A stretch of 64,000 nt of DNA from Escherichia phage NHEP1: sequence record PQ511146.1; one strand, written 5' to 3'. Positions 8,167 to 17,051 of the stretch are shown here, one piece after another. The notes under the pieces were generated by a model. The model was given only the letters and a program-made list of their open reading frames with translations, searched no databases and had not been told where the DNA came from. A program made the position numbers and the translations under genes. How positions within the stretch are numbered: position 1 is the stretch's first letter; every line of letters starts with the position of its first letter.

Positions 8167-9714
8167 TTAGATAAAACGCTTGAACATAGAAGGTGATGAG
8201 ATTGATGGAATCACACAAGGCAGCGCTACCTCCTCTTTCTCCAGGAAATTAATCGCAGAAGCTACACAGTCGGCCCAGTCGTCTTTTCTGTTAAATGTTG
8301 ATCTTTCCCCGTTGAACTTTTCAAGTTCAGTTAGAAATGCTTCCAGAGTGTCAGGATGGAAACTGGATTTTACAATCCTCACCATTCCTTGTTGGGCAAG
8401 ATTGGCAAAGGGTGAGAACCTTGTCAGTTTAGATTTGTTGGAAGGCATTGGATCTTCTTCAACCCTGAACCCTTCGGCGAGCAAGGATCTGGACGAGGTT
8501 AAGAACTCACTCTTACCTGCCTGACCGGGGTCCACAGAAAATACGATTATGCAATCATCTCCATCAAACTGCGCCTGTTTCCTGATGATCACATCTCGTT
8601 CCCCAGCCTTTTTACAGAACTTTCCTTCCAGACCTGTGGAATACCTACCGTCATCCACGTTCTCAGGACAATAATCCCCGGACAGGTAATAAAAGCCGTC
8701 GCTATCTTTACTTACCTTAACACTGGCGGTAAAGTCAGGAAATTTATTACCGGAAGTTCTCTCGGTTCCTGCTTTATCCCATGCCCTGCAAGATACTGAT
8801 CCAAGAGGTACTCTATCGGCATCACGAAGGAAAGATCTTTGGAAATAGTTTGCACCCTCAGGTTTGGCAAACCAGTTGCCATGAAGAAGCTGGGCTTTTT
8901 CAAGCTCGGGTAGACCTTCAAGGAAAGCAAGGTATTCTGGGTTGTCTCTCAAGCAGACAGGATTATCGAAAATTGTTGCGCCTATAAACGAGAATGACAA
9001 CGGTCTTGGCTTGATCTCCACACCCAGTCCGTTAACCGTGGTGTATTTCTCTATTAACTCCTCTTTAGAGTCTCCCCAGATAAACTCACCGTCGCGTCGG
9101 ATAAAATATCTTTTCTTACCACATTTCTCCGGGTCTGGATACCCTTCATCGTCCAACCACCACCTAACCAGTTTGGCAAGCATGTGTTCTGAGTCGGGGT
9201 TACAGCTGATAACCATTCTTGATGGATACTTTGACTGAGATCGCAGACGAGACATCAAATAGTCTATCTGCTCCCATTCGAATTGCGTGCCTTCATCGAA
9301 GCAAACCATGGTGTACTCAAGGCCTTGATGGTTAAGCTTATCTTGGACATACTCCATGTGGCAGTATTTTACAACGGCCCCTTTTTTGCTCCTGTCCCAC
9401 TTGCCAGTGCTCGGATCAAACCGTGGAAAAATAAACTTATGATCCTTCTCTCTGAACTTTGGTTTAATGTTTTCAGGCAGATCACTGTAAATAGCTACTG
9501 CTTTAGGCCATAGACCACCCTCACCTTCCAACTGTGGAGTTGTTCTTCGGAACATAACCACAGAGCTGTGCGGGTCATCAATAATTTTAAGCGGCATTAG
9601 CTGCAAGAGGAACGACTTGCCAGACCCAGCTGCACCTCCGATCACCAAAATATCTGCATCGTTCTCTAGGATCATCTTCTGCTTTTCAGAACACGGTCCG
9701 TAAATCTTAGACAT
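8167..9714 (-). CDS. terminase large subunit
   Basis: 515 aa; N-terminal Walker A ILVIGGAAGSGKSF; size and placement ahead of portal. Confidence 0.85.
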   Translation of the reverse strand: MSKIYGPCSEKQKMILENDADILVIGGAAGSGKSFLLQLMPLKIIDDPHSSVVMFRRTTPQLEGEGGLWPKAVAIYSDLPENIKPKFREKDHKFIFPRFDPSTGKWDRSKKGAVVKYCHMEYVQDKLNHQGLEYTMVCFDEGTQFEWEQIDYLMSRLRSQSKYPSRMVISCNPDSEHMLAKLVRWWLDDEGYPDPEKCGKKRYFIRRDGEFIWGDSKEELIEKYTTVNGLGVEIKPRPLSFSFIGATIFDNPVCLRDNPEYLAFLEGLPELEKAQLLHGNWFAKPEGANYFQRSFLRDADRVPLGSVSCRAWDKAGTERTSGNKFPDFTASVKVSKDSDGFYYLSGDYCPENVDDGRYSTGLEGKFCKKAGERDVIIRKQAQFDGDDCIIVFSVDPGQAGKSEFLTSSRSLLAEGFRVEEDPMPSNKSKLTRFSPFANLAQQGMVRIVKSSFHPDTLEAFLTELEKFNGERSTFNRKDDWADCVASAINFLEKEEVALPCVIPSISSPSMFKRFI

Positions 9715-10817: not shown

Positions 10818-10894
10818 TGGTCTCCACGGAGTGATTCGAACACTCGACCTCCTGATCCCAAATCAGGCGCTCTACCAAGCTGAGCTACGCGGAG
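10818..10894 (-). tRNA. tRNA-Pro (anticodon UGG)
   Basis: Manual fold of minus strand: 7-bp acceptor (one GU), D stem GCTC/GAGC, anticodon stem CCTGA/TCAGG, loop TTTGGGA, T stem GAGTG/CACTC with TTCGAAT loop, encoded CCA. Confidence 0.85.
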
Positions 10895-10905
10895 TATTTA
10901 TTATT

Positions 10906-10980
10906 TGGTGGCCCTGGGTGGAATTGAACCACCGTCTGGCGATTATGAGTCGCTTGCTTGAACCTTCCAGCTACAGGGCC
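10906..10980 (-). tRNA. tRNA-Met or tRNA-Ile2 (anticodon CAU)
   Basis: Manual fold: acceptor GGCCCTG/CAGGGCC, anticodon loop CTCATAA, T arm GGTGG-TTCAATT-CCACC, encoded CCA. Confidence 0.75.
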
Positions 10981-10981
10981 A

Positions 10982-11057
10982 TGGTGCTGATGGCAGGACT
11001 TGAACCTGCAACCTATTGATTACAAATCAATTGCACTACCAATTGTGCTACATCAGC
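10982..11057 (-). tRNA. tRNA-Thr (anticodon UGU)
   Basis: Manual fold: acceptor GCTGATG/CATCAGC, D stem GCAC/GTGC, anticodon stem ATTGA/TCAAT with loop TTTGTAA, T arm GCAGG-TTCAAGT-CCTGC, CCA. Confidence 0.85.
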
Positions 11058-11063
11058 AAAAGG

Positions 11064-11160
11064 TGCTAGGTGATGGAATCGAACCACCTATGTATTCAAC
11101 GACTACCTCGTCTATTTTCAGGATTAAAAATCCTCGCCCTTGCCAAAGGGCTTACCTAGC
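11064..11160 (-). tRNA. atypical tRNA-like gene (anticodon-loop-like UUUUUAA, possible tRNA-Lys-UUU variant or pseudogene) with about 30-nt extra region
   Basis: Good acceptor (GCTAGGT/ACCTAGC), D arm (GCCC-TTTGGCAA-GGGC) and T arm (GGTGG-TTCGATT-CCATC), but only a 4-bp anticodon stem (AGGA/TCCT), 97 nt long, no encoded CCA. Confidence 0.4.
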
Positions 11161-11258
11161 GCAATATGTCGACCATGTGGCTAGTCGGCGATGACGACTG
11201 TAACATTTGATAATCCGGTTCTGCTTCCGGCTTTCGCTTAATTACAAGGTCAACAATG

Positions 11259-11349
11259 TGGCGGAGAGTAATGGAATCGAACCATCATCGAGTCATCCTC
11301 AACGGGACGGTTTTCAAGACCGCTTGAGCACCATTGCTCCCTACCCTCC
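11259..11349 (-). tRNA. tRNA-Ser (anticodon UGA), class II
   Basis: Manual fold: acceptor GGAGGGT/ACTCTCC (one GU), anticodon stem GCGGT/ACCGT with loop CTTGAAA, long variable arm, T arm GATGG-TTCGATT-CCATT, encoded CCA. Confidence 0.75.
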
Positions 11350-11463
11350 TTTATAAATTACACTGATAATGACACTGATTTTCGAGCAGTTAGTGACTAG
11401 TATAAACGACGATAAATATCAATGTCATTATCTGTATGATTTATGCATTTAAAAATATAAATT

Positions 11464-11551
11464 TGGTGGTGAGTGATGGAGTCGAACCACCCGAATCGCA
11501 ATGATAACAGATTTACAGTCTGCCCCGCTACCCCTACGGAATTAACTCACC
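11464..11551 (-). tRNA. tRNA-Tyr (anticodon GUA), class II
   Basis: Acceptor GGTGAGT/ACTCACC, anticodon stem-loop GCAGA-CTGTAAA-TCTGT (as in E. coli tRNA-Tyr), T arm GGTGG-TTCGACT-CCATC, CCA; D arm could not be cleanly folded by hand. Confidence 0.7.
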
Positions 11552-11681
11552 TAAATACTAATATTTAAATTCTTTTTAAAATAGCTAGTGTTCTAACCAC
11601 TAACTATGAGGTATCGGTAAAGTGGTTACCGCCACTTGCCGAAGATTTACTCTGCTAAAGTAAGCTACATTAAAAAGAACT

Positions 11682-11756
11682 TGGCACCCCGTACTGGACT
11701 CGAACCAGTGTCAACGGCTTAGAAGGCCGCTGCTTTATCCACTAAGCTAACAGGGC
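11682..11756 (-). tRNA. tRNA-Arg (anticodon UCU)
   Basis: Acceptor GCCCTGT/ACGGGGT (two wobble pairs), D arm GCTT-AGTGGATA-AAGC, anticodon stem GCGGC/GCCGT with loop CTTCTAA, T arm ACTGG-TTCGAGT-CCAGT, CCA. Confidence 0.75.
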
Positions 11757-11852
11757 ACTGGGTGGCTTTCTTTTACACCTGAGCCGCCAGAAAAGGTGGG
11801 AGACCATGTTTATAATATTACACTGTTAGGCAAAGTTTGTCAAGAAAATATT

Positions 11853-12191
11853 TTAACTATTGCCAACAGGCTGTATTTCTGTGGTAAATGGCATAAAAGG
11901 TGCTGGTTTTTCAGCCTCTTCCACTACCACCTCTTCCTCTTCACCAAACATCTCATCATATTCTTCCTGCATTCGGTCTGCCTTATCAAGAACATACTCT
12001 GCAATGCTTTGACGAATATTTTGTTTGGTTTTCGGGTCCAACATCAGCTCTCTTAAAACTTTGTGAGCTTCTGGAACCATCGCTATAAAAGATTCCTTCA
12101 TATCAAGAATGTTCTTCTCTAGCTGAATGGCGTTGGACTCCTCTTTCAGAGGTCTGCCTCTACGGCGACGCTTTTTAGTTGTATCCGCCAT
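11853..12191 (-). CDS. hypothetical protein with basic AT-hook-like N-terminus (KKRRRRGRP) and acidic C-terminus
   Basis: ORF 11853-12311 trimmed to ATG at 12189-12191 (MADTTKK...) with GGAGG RBS; the longer start would overlap its own promoter. Confidence 0.5.
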   Translation of the reverse strand: MADTTKKRRRRGRPLKEESNAIQLEKNILDMKESFIAMVPEAHKVLRELMLDPKTKQNIRQSIAEYVLDKADRMQEEYDEMFGEEEEVVVEEAEKPAPFMPFTTEIQPVGNS

Positions 12192-12219
12192 GTTTCCTCC
12201 ATTATCACGTGATAGGTGG

Positions 12220-12248
12220 ATTTTATCACGGCAAATACTGATTGTCAA
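12220..12248 (-). promoter_or_regulatory. sigma70-like promoter with palindromic operator
   Basis: Minus strand TTGACA (12243-12248) N17 TAAAAT (12220-12225), followed by perfect palindrome ATCACGTGAT (plus 12204-12213) before the RBS. Confidence 0.5.
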
Positions 12249-12536
12249 GTTCGCCGCAGGGTGGTATTCCCTGCGACTTGCCCAGCGTCCTGGACCAGCA
12301 AGACCCAACAAGTGGGTTACCAGATACCCATTACCGCGCTCTGGCTCGACCTTATTACAGGTTGGCTGGGGTCACATCGTCATGTGCTGGCTGCCCCTAC
12401 CATTTTAAGTGTGGTGCACTATCAAGCCCTCTAAGGGGAACTCAGCCTTCTCCGAACCCTGTTTCAAAGCATCCGGAGATAAAGCCATCAAACTCATCTT
12501 TAAATTGGATATTCATCATGATACACGAAAACAACC

Positions 12537-12779
12537 TCATTGTAAAGCACAAATAAATAAAACATACTTAATTTGTTTGTTATCAGGCTCAGGGTAGAAG
12601 TAGAAGATCTTGCTATCACCGATCTGAACACCACCATCCCAACAGCATAACCCATAACCAGTATTCATACAAGCTAAGTCGTTGGCAAAATCTATTGCAT
12701 CATCTAGTGCACGAAATTCACCTTCATCTTCTAAATAATCCTCATTCATGGAACGGAAAACGAGCTTAACCTTAAACAT
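12537..12779 (-). CDS. hypothetical protein
   Basis: 80-aa minus-strand ORF, acidic; no motif. Confidence 0.4.
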   Translation of the reverse strand: MFKVKLVFRSMNEDYLEDEGEFRALDDAIDFANDLACMNTGYGLCCWDGGVQIGDSKIFYFYPEPDNKQIKYVLFICALQ

Positions 12780-12855
12780 AGCATTACCTGTAGACCTCGT
12801 AAGTTAAAATTGTATCACATCATATTGCAGATCTTATCAGGTAACATTATTTTTG

Positions 12856-13044
12856 TCAACAGATTCCGGCCTTATCCCTCCTGTCTGCGTATTCTTTAAT
12901 CGCAACCTCACCTGCATTGGTAACCAGATCTTCAAAGTAATTCTCAAGCTCCTCGTCAATGTCCGGTGACCAGCTCTTTTTCCTGTCAGTGTGAATTGCA
13001 GACTTGTTGAACTTATTACAATTCTTTGCTACCGGATTGTTCAT
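12856..13044 (-). CDS. hypothetical protein
   Basis: 62-aa minus-strand ORF. Confidence 0.35.
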   Translation of the reverse strand: MNNPVAKNCNKFNKSAIHTDRKKSWSPDIDEELENYFEDLVTNAGEVAIKEYADRRDKAGIC

Positions 13045-13054
13045 TAAGCTCTCC

Positions 13055-13633
13055 TCAACGTTCGTAGTAAATCTTATTCAACATTACCTCATCGTTTGCA
13101 GAAAGGATATCAAGATATGCATCACCAAATCTGCCTGCAACAACCTCTGCATGATACATCACTTCGTTAACATCGTCAAGAGTGATAACCGGATGACCAT
13201 ATCTTTCTGAATATTGTCTCAGTGTGCGATGTAACGAGTCGTCATCATATGCAGACTTTTTAATATCACAAACACGACGAATGGCCTTGATGTCGAAAAA
13301 ACCTGTGCGATACCACCCAAGAAAAAAGTTCCGTGTAGTGTCAACATCTACATCAATACCATTAAGAACCTTATCTACAAGATAGCTGTCATCCTTTGGA
13401 CTAGCGTCCTTAGTGCGAATGTAGTTGCCATCTTTTCCAGGTGATAGCTCCTTCTCATCACCAACCTGCATGCCATCATTTGGCGGTGTTAGCCACTTAT
13501 CAGGATGCTTACGATCACGAGCGTTAGAATGATTACGCTGGAAACCTGGCTTCCACTTGAAAGTTTTCTCCATCTGTTCTTCATTCTGATAACGTTTTGC
13601 AATCTTTTCACTGGCATCTTTGCGTGAACTCAT
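13055..13633 (-). CDS. hypothetical protein
   Basis: 192-aa minus-strand ORF with AGGAG near start; no motif recognised. Confidence 0.5.
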   Translation of the reverse strand: MSSRKDASEKIAKRYQNEEQMEKTFKWKPGFQRNHSNARDRKHPDKWLTPPNDGMQVGDEKELSPGKDGNYIRTKDASPKDDSYLVDKVLNGIDVDVDTTRNFFLGWYRTGFFDIKAIRRVCDIKKSAYDDDSLHRTLRQYSERYGHPVITLDDVNEVMYHAEVVAGRFGDAYLDILSANDEVMLNKIYYER

Positions 13634-13740
13634 AGCAGACTCCTCTTCAAGTTATAGAAAAACTCACTGTATCGCTTTGTAACGAGCTTTTCTATCAAAC
13701 TGGTGCGATTGCCTTACTTGGTATAGTTTATATAGCTGTG

Positions 13741-13990
13741 GAGCGATTTAGGGGCCTTCTTGTCAGTTTCCACACATAAACTTTATCCGAACTCGCGCGG
13801 GAGGCTCTCAACCGACTCCTTCCGGCGCTGGCAAGCTTTCGTCGGTGGTCCACATTAGTGCTCGGCCTTTGGCCTGCGCTATCGCTTCGCTCCCACACAT
13901 GTTAACAGTCCTGCATGTATGCACTTCTGTTATTGTGTGCACTATGGAGGCCCGGCATCTCGCCCCTCGTAGGCGAGTGCCAATGAAGGG
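13741..13990. other. GC-rich ORF-free island (candidate structured RNA or eroded gene)
   Basis: About 250 bp visibly GC-enriched in an AT-rich genome, no ORF of 60 aa or more in any frame; nested hairpins such as GGCCC...CTCGCC-CCTCGTA-GGCGAG...GGGCC. Confidence 0.3.
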
Positions 13991-14141
13991 CCGACACTAC
14001 CCATGATAAGTAATAAATTTAAAACATGGTACTTAGGATCTAGTATATTCTACATAAGTTAAGTATATGTACTTTAGTACCATAAGTACTAGATCTTTTA
14101 TTTTTTTTTATTATTTAGTTATTTTAGTTATATTCTTTATG

Positions 14142-14224
14142 TGTCCGTATCACGGACAGTTAGTGTCCGTATTACGGGCAGATGTGTCCGCGTGACGGAC
14201 AGTGGTGTCCGTATCACGGACAGT
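14142..14224. repeat. four-copy array of 18-bp palindromic iterons (TGTCCGTATCACGGACAG family)
   Basis: Copies at 14142-14159, 14165-14182, 14186-14203, 14207-14224 (first and last identical, two with 2-3 substitutions); each an inverted repeat; AT-rich tract 14095-14140 upstream. Confidence 0.8.
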
Positions 14225-14297
14225 TACTAACCTCTGTGCCATAGTGAACATAAAACATACAAATCCTTATAGTACAGATGTTTAAGTTTTTACTGGT

Positions 14298-14648
14298 CTA
14301 ACCAGTTGTTGACATTCGAATAACTTCTTCTGGTGGCAAAACTTTGGAAAATGTGCATCTTTTACCTCTCCCTTGTGTGGATATTTCAACCACTCCTGCA
14401 CATTCTAAAGTTTTAACGCACGCTGCTGCTTTTGTTTTCTTTATCCCAACATCTGCTGCAATTTTCCTTGTGCTGGGTGTGAAGCGTGAATTTTCTCCAA
14501 GCTTATACCAGTTGTGCAGGTAGCAGTATACAATCTTGTCATATAAGTCAAGAACAACAACCTCCCCAGTCGTGTCATTCAAAACTTTTGACATAGACAG
14601 TATTTCAAGGGGGACTTTAAGATATAGCAGCTTATCCCCATCTTTCAT
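14298..14648 (-). CDS. putative DNA-binding protein (helix-turn-helix)
   Basis: 116 aa; HTH-like segment TRKIAADVGIKKTKAAACVKTLECAGVV; gene ends 74 nt from the iteron array. Confidence 0.4.
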   Translation of the reverse strand: MKDGDKLLYLKVPLEILSMSKVLNDTTGEVVVLDLYDKIVYCYLHNWYKLGENSRFTPSTRKIAADVGIKKTKAAACVKTLECAGVVEISTQGRGKRCTFSKVLPPEEVIRMSTTG

Positions 14649-14695: not shown

Positions 14696-15250
14696 TTACT
14701 CCCCGCTGTCAATAGCAAGACTCATTGCAATACGGTATGCCTCTTCTAATGGTAAGAGTCTCCCCCACACATCCCAACCGACATCAAACTGCCTGCCAAA
14801 CAACTGCTGCGTGGTTCCGTGAGCATGACCGAACAGTTGGACTGATCCGTGAGGCTTTCTGTTCCACTTTGCAAACTGGTAATGGCTCATACAGATCAAA
14901 TTCTTGTTGTGGCGAAGCTCGTAATAATCTACAACCTCATGACCGAACTCTTTCATAATTCTGACAGTCGTCCTTGTGTCATGGTTACCACGAACAAGAA
15001 TAATATGTCCGTTCAACATATTTAGAACATCTGGAAGCAATTTGTTGATATTCTTATCATTAGTGCACGCAATATCCCCCAAGTGAAACACAGTGTCTGC
15101 AGGTGACACAACAGAGTTCCACTTGGTGATGATTCCCGCATTCATACTGTCAAGATTGTGATCATACTGAGATCTGTGTTTTTGACATGAGTCGAACTCC
15201 ATTACCCGCTGGTGGAGAAAGTGTGTGTCGCTTGTTACAAAGTATTTCAT
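14696..15250 (-). CDS. calcineurin-like metallophosphoesterase (RNA/DNA end-healing phosphatase candidate)
   Basis: ORF trimmed to ATG 15248-15250 (MKYFVTSDTHF...); motifs SDTHF, GDIA, GNHD typical of the metallophosphoesterase fold. Confidence 0.7.
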   Translation of the reverse strand: MKYFVTSDTHFLHQRVMEFDSCQKHRSQYDHNLDSMNAGIITKWNSVVSPADTVFHLGDIACTNDKNINKLLPDVLNMLNGHIILVRGNHDTRTTVRIMKEFGHEVVDYYELRHNKNLICMSHYQFAKWNRKPHGSVQLFGHAHGTTQQLFGRQFDVGWDVWGRLLPLEEAYRIAMSLAIDSGE

Positions 15251-15257
15251 ACATTCC

Positions 15258-15668
15258 TCATTTAAGTTTAATGCAGTTTTTAAGCTGGCGTTCCATACGA
15301 TCCACAACCCTGTCTGGAACATCATGAATGCTTTTATTACCATGGCGGTTTTCAACCACGATCACGGTATAACTATATCCATGACTGATCGCCATGTCAA
15401 TATATTCTTGCACATATTTTTCTTTTGTAAACGTATTACTTACCACGATACGGTCGTAGCCCATACGCATCATATCTTCTACGTTATCTTTGCACCATTT
15501 TGCTGCAAGTGTTACTTTACTTGCATCCCAATTGTAATTGCCGTCATCGTCGTACCAGAACATATCGTTCTCAAAATGTGGATACAGACCTTCTAAAGAT
15601 AGCGCATTTGCCAGTGTTGATTTGCCAGACCCTGGTAGACCACGCACGATATATAGCATTTTAGACAT
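15258..15668 (-). CDS. P-loop polynucleotide kinase-like protein
   Basis: ORF trimmed to MSKMLYIVRGLPGSGKST; Walker A and overall layout resemble the T4 PNK kinase domain; directly upstream of the phosphoesterase. Confidence 0.6.
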   Translation of the reverse strand: MSKMLYIVRGLPGSGKSTLANALSLEGLYPHFENDMFWYDDDGNYNWDASKVTLAAKWCKDNVEDMMRMGYDRIVVSNTFTKEKYVQEYIDMAISHGYSYTVIVVENRHGNKSIHDVPDRVVDRMERQLKNCIKLK

Positions 15669-15786
15669 AGTAACTCTCCGTTTTAATTTTAATGATAGTA
15701 TACCTAACTGTTTTGTTAATTTCAAGTGTTGACACCAGGTTATTTGTGTGGCAGAATAAAGGGACAAAATGACAAATGAGGAATGT

Positions 15787-16704
15787 ATGATGAAGTATTT
15801 TAATGCAGACGACCTAGTTGACAAAGGTCTTGTAACCAGCAGATATTACCCGGATCTTGGGTTAAAGATCTATAAATATGCCAGAAAAGTATTCTACAAC
15901 AATTTATGGCATTTGTCTCATCGTTTGCTGGAGTGCCGAGGCATTGTTGTCGGTAATGAAGGAAATGTTGTGGCATGGCCCTTCACAAAAGTGTTTAACT
16001 TGGGAGAAAATTCCACCAACCTGCCTGACAATAAACTTGTGACGGCGGTAGAGAAAAAGAACGGATTCCTTGGTGTGGTATCATCTCATAAAGGTGAACT
16101 ATTGTTCTCAACAACCGGGTCTCTTGATTCTCCATATTGTAACCTTGCAAAGGAAACAATCCATGAGCAATGTGGTAATTTAGATCTTATCAAGAGGGTT
16201 ATGGGCCATGAAAACATGACATTCATGTTTGAAATTTGTCACCCTTCAGATCCGCATATTGTTCAGGAAGATCATGGCGCATATTTGATAGGTTGCAGAT
16301 ATAATGATTCTGGAATAATGCTACCAGAAGCAGCTTTAGATGGGATTGCCAAATACCTTGGTGCAAAACGTCCTCACACTGTGCGTGAAATTCCGTTCAG
16401 CTATGCAAAAGAATTAGCTGCAGAAACAAGAGGTGAAGGGTATATGATTCGTAAGCCTTACTACCCTTATGATCTGCAGCTGAAGATCAAGTCTCCATAC
16501 TATTTGGCACGGAAGGCCGTAATGAGGGGTAAAGCTTGGAAGATTTGGGATGATGATATCTTTAAACGTGTTGACGAAGAGTTTTATGGCATGGTAAACT
16601 TCATTCGTAGCAATTACACAGAAGATGTGTGGAACTGCCTCCTGGAGCAAGAACGTCGTGAGATACTTGACTGCTATTTCCACAACGAGGACTATATGCA
16701 ATGA
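15787..16704 (+). CDS. RNA ligase-like nucleotidyltransferase
   Basis: GAGGA RBS then ATG 15787; motif I-like EKKNGF (KxNG), motif IV-like EGYMIRK, downstream KIKSP; divergent from the kinase/phosphatase pair. Confidence 0.55.
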   Translation: MMKYFNADDLVDKGLVTSRYYPDLGLKIYKYARKVFYNNLWHLSHRLLECRGIVVGNEGNVVAWPFTKVFNLGENSTNLPDNKLVTAVEKKNGFLGVVSSHKGELLFSTTGSLDSPYCNLAKETIHEQCGNLDLIKRVMGHENMTFMFEICHPSDPHIVQEDHGAYLIGCRYNDSGIMLPEAALDGIAKYLGAKRPHTVREIPFSYAKELAAETRGEGYMIRKPYYPYDLQLKIKSPYYLARKAVMRGKAWKIWDDDIFKRVDEEFYGMVNFIRSNYTEDVWNCLLEQERREILDCYFHNEDYMQ

Positions 16705-17051
16705 AGAAGTTGATTGTGTGGCTGGATGACTTGAGAGATCCGTCAAATTATGGGCTCCCAGATGCTCTTTGGCTAAAGAATTCCTCTGAGTTTATGGATT
16801 TTATTAACGATAATGGAAAGCTCTACAGGCGCGTTTCTGAGTGGCACATGGACAACGACCTTGGAGAGGTATTTGAAGGGTACGATTGCCTATCTATGCT
16901 GGAGGAAAAATTTGTATTTGGTAAGCCTCCTGTAGTTGACAACGTGAAGATTTTCGTGCATACTTCTAACCCATCAGCGGCTCGTAAATTCATGCTTGCT
17001 GCTGACTCGTTTAAAAAGTTTGGAATAGAGATTAAACAAAACATCTACTGA
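16701..17051 (+). CDS. hypothetical protein
   Basis: 116-aa ORF overlapping stop of RNA ligase gene (coupled); no confident motif. Confidence 0.45.
   Translation: MKKLIVWLDDLRDPSNYGLPDALWLKNSSEFMDFINDNGKLYRRVSEWHMDNDLGEVFEGYDCLSMLEEKFVFGKPPVVDNVKIFVHTSNPSAARKFMLAADSFKKFGIEIKQNIY

Follow-up and report, generated by a model that had tools for sequence, protein, structure and literature searches.

The DNA analyzed here, a window of 64 kb, is from a Vequintavirus, a coliphage of the rV5/FV3 type, and the region of interest is 96 to 99.7% identical to about 118 Vequintavirus genomes, rV5, FV3, and ECP26 among them. The genes around it lie on the minus strand; proceeding upstream, the order is a tRNA array, the gene for a 112-amino-acid protein, a GC-rich island (island 1), small open reading frames (ORFs), a second GC-rich island (island 2, 13720-14010), and an origin-like stretch, and the tRNA array comes after the 112-amino-acid gene in the direction of transcription (Table 1). 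A homologue of that gene occupies the equivalent position in a second Vequintavirinae lineage.

A tRNA-like gene of 97 to 99 nt at 11062-11160 (minus strand) was assigned a four-base anticodon (atcc) by ARAGORN, scored weakly against the Rfam tRNA model (35.5 bits), and is labeled tRNA-Lys or "OTHER" in relatives. An RNA-repair neighborhood is made up of polynucleotide kinase, phosphoesterase, and RNA ligase genes at 14696-17051 along with the nearby tRNA array and both RNA islands. Between 14010 and 14220, four copies of the inverted-repeat iteron GTGTCCGTATCACGGACAG come after an AT-rich stretch; adjoining them is a minus-strand HTH/DUF6945 gene (14298..14648) that some records name a replication initiator, and this region looks like a replication origin. 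Eighteen records labeled "Campylobacter phage" (MG0656xx) are 95 to 99% identical to E. coli Vequintavirus genomes, and their host label looks doubtful.

Composition, reading frames, and promoters at the island

A first-pass annotation, made from the letters of the window, had described 12250-12500 as an ORF-poor island of elevated GC between a gene stop and a promoter guarded by a palindrome. The composition was as claimed: GC is 0.538 against a window mean of 0.427 (standard deviation, 0.034; z = 3.2), a value reached by only 0.28% of windows of the same size, and no other 250-bp stretches of the window are as GC-rich as islands 1 and 2. The bordering gene stop exists at a different place. 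A short ORF fills the upstream third of the island, overlapping it at 12442-12500, and an alignment of seven Vequintavirus sequences, read by eye, contains five synonymous changes and one nonsynonymous change, a pattern from which we judge the ORF to be probably a real coding gene. Because of this, the true stop would lie at 12442, the first 60 nt or so of the interval would be coding, and the noncoding part would run from about 12440 to 12249 (GC, 0.562; z = 3.5). The KDEFDGF end of the short ORF is kept in the second Vequintavirinae lineage, where (L192, about 8440-8470) the ORF has shrunk to eight codons, MKDEFDGF and a stop, with a strong ribosome-binding site directly before the promoter of the RNA.

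The statement that the minus strand is free of ORFs was partly right: the short ORF and ORF 11853..12311 both enter the island, the latter as a mechanical TTG-start extension of the downstream gene. ORFs do exist in three plus-strand frames (12127..12408, 12216..12434, and 12242..12556), there is coding support for none of them, and their description as artifacts of composition stands. Some Vequintavirus records place "hypothetical proteins" over related noncoding DNA.

The downstream-gene promoter is present on the minus strand as described, matching 11 of 12 consensus positions; it carries a TG before the -10 hexamer, is invariant in seven Vequintavirus sequences, and follows directly after the RNA element. 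The palindrome ATCACGTGAT (12204-12213) is likewise present, extends to TATCACGTGATA, and is flanked by the -10 hexamer on one side and the ribosome-binding site GGAGG (12200..12196) on the other. Chance alone would give about 60 perfect 10-nt palindromes in a sequence of 64 kb (64,000/4^5), so the palindrome by itself is unremarkable; it could act as an operator or, together with CCACC (12219..12215), fold into a hairpin that hides the ribosome-binding site of read-through transcripts. The inverted repeat CCACC...GGAGG (12196-12219) could pair the downstream ribosome-binding site with sequence upstream of the transcription start, and such masking would touch read-through transcripts only; an equivalent inverted repeat, CUCCAGAAU...AUUCUGGAG, is found in L192 at about 8640-8690. 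A candidate sigma-70 promoter farther upstream could start a transcript containing the small ORF and the RNA. No terminator-like site was found on the minus strand from 11700 to 14400.

Table 1. Features of the island 1 locus (window coordinates)
Feature	Position	Strand	Basis or remark
tRNA array	10818-11756		Six to seven tRNAs called (ARAGORN, Rfam)
Downstream gene, 112 aa, N-terminal KKRRRRGRP, acidic tail	11853..12191	-	ORF list and translation
Palindrome TATCACGTGATA	12203..12214		Extension of ATCACGTGAT; single occurrence in window
Downstream-gene promoter: TTGACA (12248..12243), 17-nt spacer, TAAAAT (12225..12220)	12220..12248	-	11/12 consensus positions
SroH-like structured noncoding RNA, whole element	12249..12440	-	GC, fold z, pairing
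5' module: hairpin CCCCUUAGAGGG, then CUUGAUAGUGCACCACAC	12409..12438	-	
P1: GGGG (12397..12394) with CCCC (12371..12368)	12368..12397	-	
Linker GCCAG, pseudoknot 5' strand	12391..12387	-	Inside P1
Hairpin P2, loop GACG	12386..12373	-	Inside P1
Conserved 53-nt core, three-way junction P5/P3/P4	12317..12369	-	
P5	12366..12364 with 12328..12326	-	
P3	12362..12349	-	
P4	12345-12344 with 12337-12336	-	
Pseudoknot 3' strand CUGGU	12319..12323	-	Pairs with GCCAG (12391..12387)
3' domain: P6, P7, P8, then GGCGAAC	12249..12317	-	
P6	12317..12303	-	
P7, inner loop GACG	12302..12277	-	
P8	12274..12256	-	
GGCGAAC tail	12255..12249	-	
Short ORF, ending in KDEFDGFISGCFETGFGEG and a stop	12442..12540	-	Annotated in several GenBank relatives
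Candidate sigma-70 promoter: TTTACA, 17-nt spacer, TATCAT	12518..12546	-	Consensus scan, 10/12 positions

Architecture and covariation of the minus-strand RNA

The suggestion that the island is a candidate structured noncoding RNA, to be checked by covariation across homologues, was borne out: the covariation supports a structured RNA, and it does so on the minus strand, where fold stability relative to that of shuffled sequences is also greater (z = -2.4; plus strand, z = -1.2). At the heart of the RNA is a three-way junction (P5/P3/P4) with invariant CGAG and CGGUAAU; the linker inside P1 pairs with the tail just past P5 to give a pseudoknot, and the junction is set within it. The 5' hairpin module and the three 3' hairpins are additions of the Vequintavirus RNA. 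The 5' module is identical in the second Vequintavirinae lineage (L038 and L191-L193), in which a TTGACA-N17-TATACT promoter lies about 10 nt before the CCCCUUAGAGGG hairpin; a reading of the 5' piece beginning CUUGAUAGUGCAC as a promoter was rejected, since the presence of a proper promoter upstream in that lineage assigns the module to the RNA.

Twenty-four aligned cores were examined under the three-way junction model. The core helices are 96% paired, compared with 23 to 45% in slid controls, and none of 500 shuffles reached the core covariation score. Two pairs of P5 covary, one being CG in 18 cores and GC in 6 and the other CG in 16, UA in 4, GC in 2, AU in 1, and GU in 1, and P4 flips from C:G to G:C both in SroH, a small RNA of E. 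coli, and in Vequintavirus contig L188, whose form, GGUCAAGGCGAAGUCCGGUAA, is that of SroH. The same contig carries compensatory changes in P6 (A-U to U-A) and P7 (C-G to U-A). Elsewhere, the letters of P1 and P2 differ and the pairing is kept (GGAAC/GUUCC, GGGAA/UUCCC, GGAUG/CAUCC, and GAGUG/CACUC), and P1 pair 13:60 covaries in T4-like phages. The pseudoknot covaries among 13 T4-like sequences (position 19:114, CG in 10, AU in 2, and GC in 1; position 20:113, GC in 10 and CG in 3), and by eye it can be followed from GUGAGGG/CCCUUAC in L038 and AAACCA/UGGUUU in L039 to GCCAG/CUGGU in the window and CAGA/UCUG in SroH. Fitted to seven Vequintavirus sequences, the complete window-RNA model gives 97.8% pairing and four double-sided changes, in P5, P4, P6, and P7. 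G-U pairs are frequent and fit a minus-strand reading only.

Such a pattern makes it extremely unlikely that the island is something other than an RNA gene, whether a decayed or unrecognized protein gene, an artifact of composition, or a DNA site such as an origin or packaging signal. Across homologues, the element contains stop codons and indels that are not divisible by three, its substitutions either spare the stems, lying in loops, or are balanced there by a compensating change, its G-U pairs fit one strand, its genome settings are unrelated to one another, and bacteria have it as a mapped small RNA; against these observations can be set the three open plus-strand frames, the annotation of vs.8 across the element in the T4 RefSeq record, and the origin-like region (iterons and an AT-rich stretch) 1.6 kb away. 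The first-pass annotation had allowed that homologues might hold an intact gene here, and none spanning the core was found; T4-like phages have broken or shifted frames over the element, except for the overextended vs.8 of the T4 RefSeq record.

No tRNA cloverleaf was called in 12192-12540 by ARAGORN or the Rfam tRNA model, and no riboswitch or self-cleaving ribozyme was matched in Rfam at the gathering threshold or at an E value of ≤10. An HDV-like ribozyme, suggested by an identical helix order, was rejected because it is in the P4-equivalent domain that the nucleotides are conserved and because Rfam offers no matching model. A T-arm reading was discarded as a short letter match contradicted by the P4 covariation, and resemblances to the 16S 530 loop, as mimicry, and to 4.5S RNA rest likewise on short letter matches only.

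Island 2 had been linked to island 1 through a short shared core. The letters are there, the string ATAGTGCAC occurring exactly at 12414-12422 and 13937-13945 only, both on the minus strand, but the sharing does not exceed chance: islands 1 and 2 align locally with a best score of 19, compared with 17.5 ± 2.3 for shuffled sequences, 136 of 500 of which reach 19. The core covariance model finds no copy of the RNA core in island 2 or in its plasmid relatives, and with no core match and no significant alignment, we rejected the view that the islands are paralogues. Island 2 (13720-14010, minus strand) is a separate structured element that is not SroH related and has no Rfam match. Its arms change in a compensatory manner (CUCGCC/GGCGAG to CUCUCC/GGAGAG; CCGAC/GUCGG to CUGCC/GGCAG; and, in L200, GGGAG/CUCCC to GGAAG/CUUCC), and about 85% of two of its stretches has a match in unannotated DNA of 13-kb circular E. 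coli "plasmids." Two small circular E. coli replicons with tape-measure and baseplate genes (L006, NZ_CP020521, 13.7 kb; L007, NZ_CP043822, 39.6 kb) hold the island 2 homologue in a noncoding region of about 1.6 kb and are possibly Vequintavirus-related phage satellites or defective phage-plasmids.

Distribution among phages and kinship with SroH

Sensitive BLAST searches of phage records returned 118 full-length Vequintavirus matches and about 700 further records, mostly of T4-like phages, in which only 45 nt (12369..12325) are common, at 88 to 95% identity, in unannotated intergenic DNA and in the sense orientation. In T4 itself, the core lies between denV and vs.8 (69.5 bits). Pattern scans of viral contigs, together with BLAST, located it in several Tevenvirinae genera, and it is also present in the second Vequintavirinae lineage (L038 and L191-L193), in Phapecoctavirus phiWec190, where it occupies the space between the tRNA-Thr and tRNA-Gly genes of a tRNA array, and in Klebsiella phage Pylas, KpCHEMY26, and other contigs of 46 to 96 kb. 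The element was annotated in none of the records examined. In at least eight phage contigs, as in the window, it lies on the same strand as a tRNA array and within 200 to 700 nt of it or inside it. The window holds one strong copy by the core covariance model (65.9 bits; E = 2.5e-17); a weak match at 19999-20050, inside a 427-amino-acid ORF, was taken as chance, and the genome-wide pattern scan was loose, with about 110 of its 120 matches arising by chance.

The T4/Tevenvirinae element has the same core and the same plan of P1, P2, and pseudoknot, and it lies on the sense strand of its flanking genes, but it is shorter (about 120 to 140 nt), has a different 3' domain (AUGGA... and GCCAWGGAAUGGC), and has no tRNA genes next to it. 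The RefSeq entry for T4 (L199, NC_000866; 3293-3413, corresponding to about 64,790-64,912 of T4) has the vs.8 coding sequence starting at an ATG within P2 and reading through the element; in a close relative, the frame is stopped before a shorter start, MRTFLTG, and the RefSeq start is probably misannotated, running over the element. Some T4-like contigs carry two SroH-like elements in tandem (L043, 5087-5250; L046, 9021-9185), the second with a diverged junction (GGUCAGCCCGCGGCGGUAA). No conserved protein partner was found on the phage side: vs.8, a P-loop protein, is linked to the RNA in T4-like phages only, and the 112-amino-acid protein is linked to it in Vequintavirinae only. A search of the literature on vs.8/denV and on Vequintavirinae transcriptomes yielded nothing useful.

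The first lead to a bacterial relative was an Rfam scan of a T4-like copy, which returned sroH at 10 bits (E = 1.8; gathering score, 80). Apart from this hit, Rfam scans at the gathering threshold and at an E value of ≤10 gave tRNAs and a spurious rli43 match over island 2; the Rfam search proposed for island 1 by the first-pass annotation thus came back without a match at the curated threshold, and sroH was not matched anywhere in 11700-14300 even at an E value of ≤10. The Rfam SroH model describes sequence only and misses the phage copies. A covariance model (R2) built from 26 phage copies alone scored E. coli SroH at 45.6 bits (E = 3.9e-11), a bacterial relative on contig L124 at 42.7 bits, and a Vibrio ezurae locus at 39.1 bits, compared with no more than 27.6 bits for chance loci with the same sequence pattern; the Rfam model, RF00372, scores L124 at 60 bits. 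A sequence-only profile (HMM) of the phage copies reaches SroH at just 13.7 bits, and no match to island 1 came from a BLAST search of 5,426 E. coli genomes, because SroH is too diverged for blastn; a structure-aware model was needed.

SroH of E. coli (RF00372; b4691, between yjaZ and thiH) shares the three-way junction of the core, ...ACCU(hairpin)AGGUC-AG-C...CGGUAAUG..., and carries UCCCGC-AACCUG(hairpin)AAGGUC-AG-C-AAGU-CGGUAAUGG, the same string with its hairpin lengthened; both P5 and P4 covary when phage and bacterial copies are compared. The order of helices equals that of the phage RNA, namely, a 5' hairpin, P1, linker, P2, P1', P5-P3-P4, the pseudoknot tail, a 3' hairpin, and GGCGAA, and the hairpin followed by GGCGAA is present in bacterial SroH RNAs too. 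The two differ in the letters of P1 and the pseudoknot, the bacterial GGAUGCAGCAGAC and GUUCUGAAUA not being kept in the phage RNA, and in the extra 5' module and two extra 3' hairpins of the phage RNA. SroH stands alone as a gene, with a promoter and an intrinsic terminator of its own, an arrangement that the window RNA does not share; the latter has no terminator of its own and no yjaZ neighbor and sits in an early/tRNA transcription unit. We are highly confident that island 1, from about 12440 to 12249 on the minus strand, is a structured RNA gene of the SroH family.

The E. coli SroH RNA is polyadenylated, and both poly(A) polymerase and PNPase act on it (PMC5389530 and PMC13572404); a K-12 sroH deletion is reported, in work cited in PMC5389530, to be viable and only envelope-stress sensitive. 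No paper linking sroH to phages was found in an incomplete search of the literature, and an earlier description is possible.

Bacterial yjaZ and the proposed role of the phage RNA

All six bacterial yjaZ loci examined (E. coli, a metagenome-assembled genome labeled cyanobacterial, Oceanimonas, Aeromonas, the cyanobacterium Waterburya, and a Raoultella contig), the YjaZ homologues being those of Pfam PF27200, have an SroH-like RNA tail to tail with yjaZ, on the opposite strand and 50 to 110 nt past the yjaZ stop. The Oceanimonas, Aeromonas, Waterburya, and Raoultella cores score 44.8, 17.4, 33.7, and 29.4 bits, respectively. Flanks differ from locus to locus (ParA with an integrase, LptFG, HicB, and UmuDC), the L124 contig has the same pair among different neighbors with a YjaZ 49% identical in protein sequence to that of E. 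coli, and the YjaZ of the Raoultella contig is labeled plasmid borne by NCBI; the recurrence of one pair among different neighbors means that yjaZ-sroH behaves as a mobile two-gene module. The pair is spread over Gammaproteobacteria and cyanobacteria (L059, L124, L219, L221, L223, and L224), and within it the RNA is conserved better than the YjaZ protein. The two convergent genes probably use a common bidirectional terminator. The Vibrio ezurae RNA has no adjacent yjaZ, and tblastn with YjaZ found no match in the window or in any phage locus examined. The predicted fold of YjaZ weakly resembles RelE/ParE toxins; an incomplete literature search found no papers on YjaZ function.

The best explanation overall, which we hold at a little under even confidence, is that the phage RNA is a trans-acting mimic of host SroH and possibly a decoy for YjaZ. 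Its two parts carry separate weights: action in trans as a mimic of SroH has an even chance of being right, and YjaZ as the target is a possibility that we regard as doubtful. The RNA would be made early, with the same polarity as the small upstream ORF, the 112-amino-acid gene, and the tRNA array, and it is probably released by cleavage of a longer early transcript, as there is no terminator behind it. It would then occupy whatever host SroH binds. Action in trans is favored because the junction is the invariant part and the bacterial copies are free-standing, and a YjaZ decoy is the most specific version of the idea because of the linkage to yjaZ: after host transcription stops or SroH decays, the phage RNA would keep a YjaZ-type activity silenced in the manner of an antitoxin-like decoy. 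Counting against the decoy model are the weakness of the YjaZ fold resemblance, the Vibrio ezurae copy without yjaZ, the departure of the phage copies from the bacterial P1 and pseudoknot letters, and the fixed place of the RNA beside vs.8 in T4-like phages; the reported viability of the sroH deletion argues against a strict toxin-antitoxin pair. A broader version, somewhat improbable in our estimation, makes yjaZ-sroH a widespread mobile toxin-antitoxin or abortive-infection module, in which a RelE/ParE-like protein would be held in check by the pseudoknotted RNA and from which large virulent phages of enterobacteria (T4-, rV5-, phAPEC8-, and Pylas-like) would each have taken the RNA half as an early decoy that disarms it.

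The main rival to a mimic acting in trans is a cis element of the early polycistronic transcript, either a signal for processing or stability, at which RNase III, E, or P would enter or stop, or a control on translation of the next gene. We consider this unlikely, since bacterial SroH and the L039 phage copy stand alone, finishing with an intrinsic terminator and having no downstream gene, the genes downstream vary between phage groups, and it is the junction that is invariant, whereas processing would take place in the flanks. The cis reading nevertheless draws on several features of the phage copies: no terminator follows the RNA, which shares its direction with the downstream gene and the tRNAs; the RNA of T4-like phages always lies directly upstream of vs.8, a fixed position that could itself mean a cis role; the CCACC upstream of the palindrome can, by eye, pair with the GGAGG ribosome-binding site in read-through transcripts; and the phiWec190 or Pylas-type element is closed, again by eye, by long terminal helices, GUUGUGAC/GUCACAAC or GUUGUGAA/UUCACAAC (the second with a compensatory change), plus an outer helix of about 10 bp, an arrangement that looks like a processing stem.

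Alternatively, the RNA might sense or bind a partner other than YjaZ, be it a small molecule, the ribosome, RNA polymerase, or CsrA. Its approximately 30 near-invariant nucleotides in a pseudoknotted junction are reminiscent of aptamer cores, and, by eye, GGA occurs in hairpin loops, AGGACG and GGGAAU in the window and CAAGGAAUG and AUGGAUG in T4-like phages, that resemble sites of the CsrA consensus. The GGA motifs, however, are at nonconserved positions, the likeness of GCCAGAGCGCGGUAAU to the 16S 530 loop extends over just 8 or so contiguous nucleotides, the window has no Rfam riboswitch or ribozyme match even at an E value of ≤10, the only Rfam matches in T4 are sroH and MS2 at chance level, and the bacterial copies control no downstream gene; we rate such a binding role as quite unlikely. 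An ordinary base-pairing small RNA, acting through a short seed on host or phage mRNAs, is very unlikely: conservation resides in the structured junction and not in an accessible seed, and the single-stranded linkers vary among lineages, even though SroH is cataloged as a small RNA and kbl is the one reported in vitro target (PMC6172242).

SroH has been on the list of E. coli small RNAs since 2003 without a function or structure, and Rfam holds it as sequence only. The present analysis shows that its core is a covarying pseudoknotted three-way junction, that this junction is present in more than 800 phage records of the collection searched, T4 included, and always unannotated, and that in bacteria the SroH-like RNA travels with yjaZ. 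An orphan small RNA and an orphan gene become a testable pair, the findings suggest a possible new phage countermeasure, and the T4 annotation is corrected in that the vs.8 start probably overruns the element.

Two known systems invite comparison with the mimic that we favor. Blower et al. reportedly described in 2012 how the pseudo-ToxI of phage phiTE counters ToxIN; the likeness would be one of concept only, a phage copy of a host RNA neutralizing a host toxin with the toxin gene absent. Type III antitoxins and their phage pseudo-antitoxins are tandem repeat arrays processed by the toxin, ToxI being made of tandem 36-nt repeats on the same strand as toxN, whereas the window holds one copy of a single complex RNA whose bacterial partner gene is convergent. 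The tRNA cluster of T4 encodes the stable RNAs C and D (rnaC and rnaD), of unknown function, and these are non-tRNA stable RNAs that are colocated and presumably coprocessed with phage tRNAs, as would be the case here; the SroH-like element of T4 lies at a different locus (denV-vs.8) from rnaC and rnaD.
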